A DNA stretch of 64,000 nt from Octopus vulgaris. Taxonomy: Eukaryota. Below, in pieces: positions 59,912 through 60,502 of the stretch (position 1 is the stretch's first letter; each line of letters starts with the position of its first letter). The stretch lies in assembly GCA_951406725.2 (NCBI GenBank), contig OX597828.1:558001-622000 (forward strand), read 5' to 3'. Position numbers and translations under genes: made by a program. The notes beneath the pieces are model-generated. The model worked only from the letters and a program-made list of their open reading frames with translations, was not told the DNA's origin and did not search any database.

Positions 59912-60502
59912 ATAATAGAAATATTAAAATAACTAAGTCTCTCTAAAAGAGAACAGCGGCAGCGTTCCCGGAAAATAATAGTTATCGCCATACTAATATG
60001 GCATTCTTATAAAAATAAGAAAAAAGCTGTCCGCTTATTAGCTCCATGAGGCCATCGCCTTAAGTTAGCTATTTGATACACAAACTGTATCCATATAACC
60101 TTCGAACAAGGGAGGTCAGTCGCTCCACACTACTTGACCGGCAGCTACAGACGCGTTTCGGGGTATTGCCCCTTTTCAATGCAGCGTAGCCAGCCAGTAG
60201 GTGTCGCTTCCGACAATCTCTGTTCGATGGTTTTATTTACCTAGTTTCGGTGGAATACATCCACTTGTTTTCAATAATAGAAATATTAAAATAACTAAGT
60301 CTCTCTAAAAGAGAACAGTGGCAGCGTTCCCGGAAAATAATAGTTATCGCCATACTAATATGGCAGTCTTGTTCGAAGGTTATATGGATACAGTTTGTGT
60401 ATCAAATAGCTAACTTAAGGCGATGGCCTCATGGAGCTAATAAGCGGACAGCTTTTTTCTTATTTTTATAAGAATGCCATATTAGTATGGCGATAACTAT
60501 TA
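59912..60502. mobile_element. Non-coding 362-bp unit, partial tandem plus inverted tail, carrying a hammerhead (PLE pLTR / retrozyme-like)
   Basis: ATAATAGAAATATTAAAATAAC at 59912 and 60274. 60368-60502 is the reverse complement of 59975-60110. (TA)n on both sides. Confidence 0.75.
60144..60185 (-). ncRNA. Type I hammerhead ribozyme, U3-A8 covariant core
   Basis: Minus strand GCTGCA-TTGAAAA-GGGG-CAATA-CCCC-GAAA-CGCG-T-C-TGTAGC. Confidence 0.7.

Follow-up and report, generated by a model that had tools for sequence, protein, structure and literature searches.

A short non-coding insertion lies near the right end of the window, by which we mean the whole 64,000-nucleotide stretch of Octopus vulgaris DNA that was analysed (GenBank assembly GCA_951406725.2, contig OX597828.1, positions 558,001 to 622,000 of the forward strand). 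The insertion sits between two TA arrays, its sense strand is the minus strand of the window, and copies of a related unit are found near 35 and 55 kb. The features relevant to this analysis are as follows.

59640..59911, pure part of the left (TA)n target array, which goes on leftward with CA
59912..60273, minus strand, full unit of 362 nt, non-coding, equal to the closed contigs of two public runs (X5 and X19)
59912..59974, minus strand, one-sided 3' tail of 63 nt, present at one end only
59940..59952, minus strand, tail hairpin (5 bp, UUU loop), which is the word shared with the sister family
59988..60003, minus strand, GCCAU/AUGGC hairpin that immediately precedes the short 3' end and is kept in both families
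60130..60200, minus strand, type I hammerhead that comprises outer helix I, the UAC/U bulge, stem I, U3-A8 core, stem II, GAAA, stem III
60274..60370, minus strand, partial second unit of 97 nt with 2 differences, without the ribozyme
60368..60503, plus strand, inverted arm, truncated at its 5' end and covering unit nt 40-175 past the cut, that reaches the right TA array with its 3' end
60504..61270, right (TA)n target array
34863..35792, homologous sister-family insertion with head-to-head arms, CCGACGA hammerheads at 35109 (minus) and 35581 (plus), and a 40-nt tail
55133..55630, minus strand, duplicate of the 35-kb right arm, carrying the hammerhead at 55344 and lying within an inverted segmental duplication

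The 60-kb insert consists of 1.27 tandem units and a 136-nt inverted arm. Its direct repeat (59912-60008 and 60274-60370) is 97 nt long, 98% identical and spaced by 362 nt, its inverted arms (59975-60110 and 60368-60503) show 100% identity over 136 nt, and the direct part and the inverted arm overlap by 3 nt at 60368-60370. A first-pass annotation of the sequence had described about 1.25 units plus a 135-bp inverted tail between pure (TA)n. That layout holds, but the arrays on both sides carry scattered CA. Because the partial repeat and the inverted arm both stop short of the ribozyme, the insert holds a single hammerhead. It is a monomer-type copy, compared with the at least two consecutive complete-hammerhead units of an "active" locus as given in the part of the Li et al. 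preprint available to us, and with one ribozyme it cannot release a monomer by itself. The letter at 60366 in the partial second unit differs from that at the matching position 60004 and is a 9% variant in another public run (X2). Although the junction is just 2 nt away, the difference may indicate a second template.

The unit has a GC content of 0.39, and the longest ATG ORF in its circularised form spans 38 codons; no ATG ORF of more than 50 codons occurs in the 60-kb or the 35/55-kb unit, each circularised and read on both strands. Simple patterns for Pol III box A and box B likewise find none in the units. The predicted fold of the 362-nt unit reaches -125.6 kcal/mol (z -7.1), and 0/100 shuffles are equally stable.

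The ribozyme core reads UUGAAAA on the minus strand, from U3 at 60179 to A9 at 60173. Stem I comprises 6 bp (60185-60180 with 60149-60144) and is followed by the UAC/U bulge and then by an outer helix of 7 bp; stem II comprises 4 bp with a 5-nt loop (60172-60160), after which comes GAAA. The GUC ends at 60150, which places the predicted cut between 60150 and 60149. A descriptor scan recovers this hammerhead, core and GUC site included, just as the earlier annotation had read it. The same annotation called stems I-III intact, which is true of I and II, but stem III (60156-60151) is the palindrome ACGCGU with just two pairs round a 2-nt loop. Across the window the scan yields four hammerheads in total: the UUGAAAA core at 60179 (minus) and CCGACGA cores at 35109 (minus), 35581 (plus) and 55344 (minus). 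The real unit matches the descriptor once, compared with 1/20,000 dinucleotide shuffles when any letter is allowed at positions 3 and 8 and 3/20,000 when the two must pair. Rfam reports no hammerhead, with 0 matches at gathering score over the window in a search run without a positive control; with E values up to 10, two local stretches give 10 and 1 chance-level matches, none of them a hammerhead.

The structure is that of a canonical type I hammerhead: 3 and 8 are paired, GAAA and an NUH site are present, and helices I, II and III, of 6, 4 and 2 bp, agree with the 6, 4 and 1-2 bp, the last with a small palindromic loop, of the definition in PMC4209133. The attributes given there for minimal hammerheads of Penelope-like elements (PLEs), namely a short helix I, a long helix II and an extra base between 9 and 10.1, are not seen. 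The two parts that would form a tertiary contact, namely the UAC/U bulge of helix I and the CAAUA with which loop II opens, are conserved between the families, although the stems differ. Because stem III is only 2 bp and palindromic, cleavage likely needs a dimer, an arrangement for which PMC6155905 provides background. An unconstrained fold of two copies is predicted to form a double hammerhead through the palindrome, at -68.9 versus 2 x -31.4 kcal/mol, which is 6 lower.

These attributes bring to mind the non-LTR retrozymes, which are described in the available text of PMC7229834 as short units in tandem that bear type I hammerheads and are expressed as circles, and for which PLEs have been proposed as the mobiliser. 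Further marks of the class are a missing primer-binding site and polypurine tract and a longer target-site duplication, which a (TA)n target would hide. Judged by its sequence, the octopus repeat probably belongs in this class: it is a short, non-coding, head-to-tail, multi-copy unit with one type I hammerhead, a GC content below 50% and strong self-pairing. Like the animal members described in the source excerpts, it is a non-coding tandem unit within 150-450 bp (350-390 in mussel) with GC below 50%, and has a canonical type I hammerhead, a weak palindromic helix III and strong self-pairing. As described for axolotl, two related families occur in one genome. Unlike the animal examples in those excerpts, the 60-kb family has a U3-A8 core, its sister family has U4C in the core and U-U at the foot of stem II, and the inserts are head-to-head, about 1.3 units long, set in (TA)n and tailed on one side. 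A 2026 preprint on Xenopus (bioRxiv 10.64898/2026.07.22.740005) backs a PLE origin of retrozymes by phylogeny and reports that 8/9 tested retrozyme dimers were uncleaved and 1/9 was active. The portion of that preprint available to us mentions neither octopus nor mollusc, and has the word "inverted" only in a reference title. A literature search combining hammerhead ribozyme with octopus brought up, among the papers listed and by their titles and abstracts, no description of such an element. An annotation of octopus repeats (PMC13282606) describes recently active Penelope families, and the words ribozyme and retrozyme are absent from its accessible text.

The U3-A8 core variant alone is not new. 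Passages in PMC3088659 record it as natural and active in vitro, and PMC4209133, the only paper that came up in a literature search on U3-A8 with hammerhead, reports it in about 1,300 PLE hammerheads of Schistosoma. The Cercyon ribozymes of that genus, as described there, show the same covariation of positions 3 and 8 in minimal PLE hammerheads, whereas the octopus ribozyme is a full-helix type I hammerhead in a retrozyme-type unit. The occurrence of U3-A8 in PLE ribozymes, together with the insertion signature discussed below, would also be expected if the unit served as pseudo-LTR to an autonomous Penelope-like element of which the insert were a 5'-truncated end piece. We regard this as unlikely. 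The canonical 6-bp and 4-bp helices, with no extra base after A9, do not resemble those of minimal PLE hammerheads, and neither circularised unit has an ATG ORF above the 50-codon limit given above, although a minority branch with an ORF is possible, 12 of 91 loose ends being listed. The unit also joins itself head to tail, both here and in public data.

Those public data bear on whether U3-A8 characterizes the family or arose by decay of one copy. At least 0.85 of 39 sampled unit words are present in 20 of the 24 listed runs (11 studies, 9 organism codes), and contigs from four of the 20 (X2, X5, X15 and X19) were compared with the unit; such contigs miss rare variants, and families below 82% identity fall outside the comparison. 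No RNA run is listed among those holding the words, and runs only tentatively marked as RNA carried no weight as evidence for expression. In all four runs the unit is self-joined head to tail, the joint leading back by 362. X5 and X19 each hold one self-closing contig of 392 nt that equals the 362-nt unit with 0 differences, although X5 may be the window's own source, and such a contig fits a genomic tandem as well as a circle. In X2, 1,789 contigs match the unit, a count that, like summed depth, is not a copy number. No letter at 4% or more is listed in X2 at 60174 or 60179. Indeed, none of the 22 substitutions listed falls on the core, the GAAA, the GUC or inner stem I, and the sole one inside 60142-60210 is at 60160 (0.4%, X2), where the pair that opens stem II would become G-U. 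The commonest outer-helix variants of X2, at 60137 (25%) and 60141 (10.5%), retain pairing. One diverged X15 contig differs by 14 substitutions plus 3 gaps over 97 nt, with no listed core change, and its stem III is shorter by 2 bases yet still palindromic. As far as these contigs reach, U3-A8 is the state of the family and not decay of the 60-kb copy, and the 3-8 pairing is kept; the C3-G8 consensus that would have contradicted the first-pass reading was not seen.

This diverged X15 contig (match 60097-60193) is 2,377 nt long and carries its ribozyme copy, with the shortened stem III, at one end. It may derive from a transcript of the host or from a longer element that is the parent, and in the latter case it would count in favor of the pseudo-LTR reading. 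The ribozyme was also sought in other collections. A 25-base pattern has 0 matches in metagenome contigs, a looser U3-A8 pattern has 28 matches in a collection scan (0/28 with both stems), viral contigs give 54 matches (0/54 with the core), and prokaryote genomes give 0 matches.

The sister family near 35 kb offers a point of comparison. Its core, CCGACGA (C3, C4 and G8), also departs from canonical CUGANGA; the C3-G8 pair is kept, and a U-U lies at the base of stem II. Both U4C and a U-U base of stem II are recorded as natural hammerhead variants in the relevant section of PMC3088659. Rotated to their predicted cuts, the 60-kb and 35/55-kb units align end to end with 199/341 columns identical, at local and global scores of 46 and 132 (22±3 and 61±12 for shuffles, 0/300 reaching either), and the antisense control of this alignment is non-significant (43/300). 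The shared word starts at nt 199 past the predicted cut in both. On this evidence from alignment, the two units share ancestry along their whole length, which the first-pass annotation, from their similar size and the shared word, had raised as a possibility beside a common constraint. The 55-kb copy was considered as an independent insertion and rejected, as it lies inside an inverted duplication of the 35-kb region that is 98.7% identical over 2.4 kb.

The families also differ, in the sequences compared, by compensatory changes, which affect the ribozyme as well as further hairpins. Among 38 pairs in seven helices, 21 are identical, 3 are changed on one side and 14 on both, a count biased toward pairing in that the helices were hand-picked from two folds in two families without a shuffle control. 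The MAFFT alignments A1 and A2 were excluded from the pair counts because stem III is out of register in them. It had been proposed that the double change at 3 and 8 suggests selection for catalysis. The compensatory changes between families do point to selection on ribozyme structure, but not at the 60-kb locus: that copy has one ribozyme, and therefore selection would have acted on the RNA of the family.

Two other readings bear on these comparisons. One is that the unit is a satellite-like DNA repeat, spread by recombination or slippage, with the ribozyme a non-working relic. A segmental duplication in the window did copy the sister element, and near-identity across runs could mean amplification at the DNA level, but we consider this very unlikely given the compensatory changes, the core conserved across diverged copies, the ends at matching sites in two families, the head-to-head layout and the one-sided tail. 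The other is a viroid-like RNA circle that replicates from RNA to RNA and integrates occasionally, for which one may cite the size, the strong self-pairing, the closed contigs and the heavy compensatory divergence between families. This idea we can credit hardly at all: the ribozyme is on one polarity only, the fold is not a rod, and a DNA-type run holds very many genomic variants.

The ends of the inserts offer a clue to how the retrozyme-type repeat moved. In both the 60-kb and 35-kb inserts the arms lie head to head, with the sense 3' ends facing outward into (TA)n. Exact ends are uncertain by a few bases of TA, and within that margin the short 3' ends fall at nt 175 (60 kb) and 178 (35 kb) past the cut, just beyond the shared hairpin, and the long ends at nt 238 and 218, respectively, leaving tails of 63 and 40 nt that hold the shared-word hairpin. 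Two further copies, one contig each and among the 12 of 91 loose ends listed, reach (TA)n at nt 177 and 169; this comparison bears on the short end, nt 238 being at the edge of the compared stretch. Excerpts of PMC8557442 and PMC3846280 list the features of PLE insertions as partial tandem structure, an inverted 5'-truncated copy, an optional tail and a (TA)n target. All are seen at 60 kb, where the insert has a partial tandem, an inverted 5'-truncated copy, a one-sided tail and a TA-rich target. By analogy, the layout is thus the Penelope insertion signature, which had gone unremarked in the first reading.

Work with a purified PLE protein, as presented in the available part of PMC11167929, shows that it nicks and extends both strands, that two internal start sites bound the tail, and that the ribozyme is dispensable for insertion in vitro, no cleavage being needed. 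The octopus inserts are like the PLE insertions in these three sources in their signature and in ends that fall at internal positions downstream of the hammerhead. They are unlike them in lacking the RT or GIY-YIG ORF of an autonomous PLE, in having a canonical instead of a minimal hammerhead, and in a tail of 63 nt (40 in the sister) versus the usual 30-40. Furthermore, the start site named for the anole PLE, in the text at hand, is about 85-92 nt past the cut versus 175-238 nt here. Among 30 ORFs of the window, hand-chosen and mostly from an 85-frame list, none matches a GIY-YIG family.

We therefore consider it probable that the 60-kb insert represents a genomic copy of a 362-nt repeat, non-coding and of the non-LTR-retrozyme type, that was inserted into (TA)n by a Penelope-like RT-endonuclease acting in trans. 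It is a real and likely young copy of its family. Tandem copies elsewhere would be transcribed, two ribozymes would pair through ACGCGU and excise unit-length RNA, and a host ligase would circularise it. A Penelope enzyme would then nick both strands of TA-rich DNA, and reverse transcription would begin not at the cut end but internally, at two fixed positions some 175 and 238 nt beyond the cut. The left arm crosses the predicted cut site and extends past one unit, and therefore its template was not one cleaved linear monomer; a circle or an uncleaved multimer would serve. The two cDNAs would be joined head to head at the 3-nt overlap, with the 63-nt tail left at one end. Unless it dimerises in trans, the resulting copy would be a dead end.

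Might the AP-endonuclease LINEs of the window have mobilised the retrozyme instead? Several LINE-type RT frames do lie between TA arrays, one of them adjoining an AP-endonuclease frame. However, the insert has no poly(A), simple 3' tail or LINE-like 3' end, tail extension is stated in the relevant passage of PMC8557442 to be absent from non-LTR priming, and an apparent LINE fusion at 55631 falls in the segmental duplication. Such an origin is highly improbable.

Within the preferred reading of Penelope insertion in trans, the two loci differ in what their arms reveal. The 60-kb arms are identical, which fits a fold-back or two primings. The 35-kb arms are different variants (400/438 versus 509/513 columns identical to the 55-kb unit) with unit spacings of about 351 versus 360, joined at a 4-nt overlap. 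These unlike arms fit two templates better than self-priming, and they could also stem from two successive insertions. The tail hairpin, whose sequence and distance from the cut are the same in the 35/55-kb family, would be a candidate protein-recognition signal; the shared word is altered in the outermost 35-kb copy, which weakens a strict need for it. Perhaps, then, the inserts are footprints of a Penelope enzyme that copies retrozyme circles from two fixed internal sites bracketing an invariant hairpin, a cis signal by which the enzyme is hijacked, and that uses a separate RNA on each nicked strand, as the 35-kb arms would record. We offer this more detailed proposal tentatively and with less than even confidence.

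Which enzyme mobilises retrozymes in animals is still debated on the grounds of co-occurrence and phylogeny. A pair of diverged families that agree in start-site geometry and in an invariant hairpin provides a concrete candidate cis element for purified Penelope protein. Searches based on CUGANGA miss the U3-A8 family, as the first-pass annotation had noted, and these and Rfam searches miss both families, one being U3-A8 and the other U4C.

Several other elements of the window deserve mention. A palindromic insert at 61266-61497, in the same TA array, has arms of about 84 nt without a spacer and a one-sided tail of about 67 nt. A relationship to either unit was not detected (53/300 and 189/300 shuffles score as well), and it may represent what is left of the 3' end of another Penelope-type element. 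Another palindromic element, of about 310 bp, lies at 13588-13899 and adjoins a CA/TA run. Tandem arrays between TA arrays occupy 23102-23977 (periods 342 and 62 bp) and 62362-63129 (231 bp, 3.3 copies, 99%), and the descriptor scan finds no hammerhead in either. The inverted, near-identical duplication 33822-38467 / 51381-56935 contains LINE pieces, TA arrays and the sister right arm, is about 99% identical outside arrays, and adjoins a 100-N gap at about 33722; it may be real or an assembly artefact. LINE-type RT frames are located at 28820-30949, 36299-39490, 47471-48837 and 51988-54163, bounded by TA and in one case beside an AP-endonuclease frame. Lastly, the frame at 16293-16841 matches the 2B domain of Pif1 helicase (E 2.7e-15) and is possibly a piece of a Helitron.
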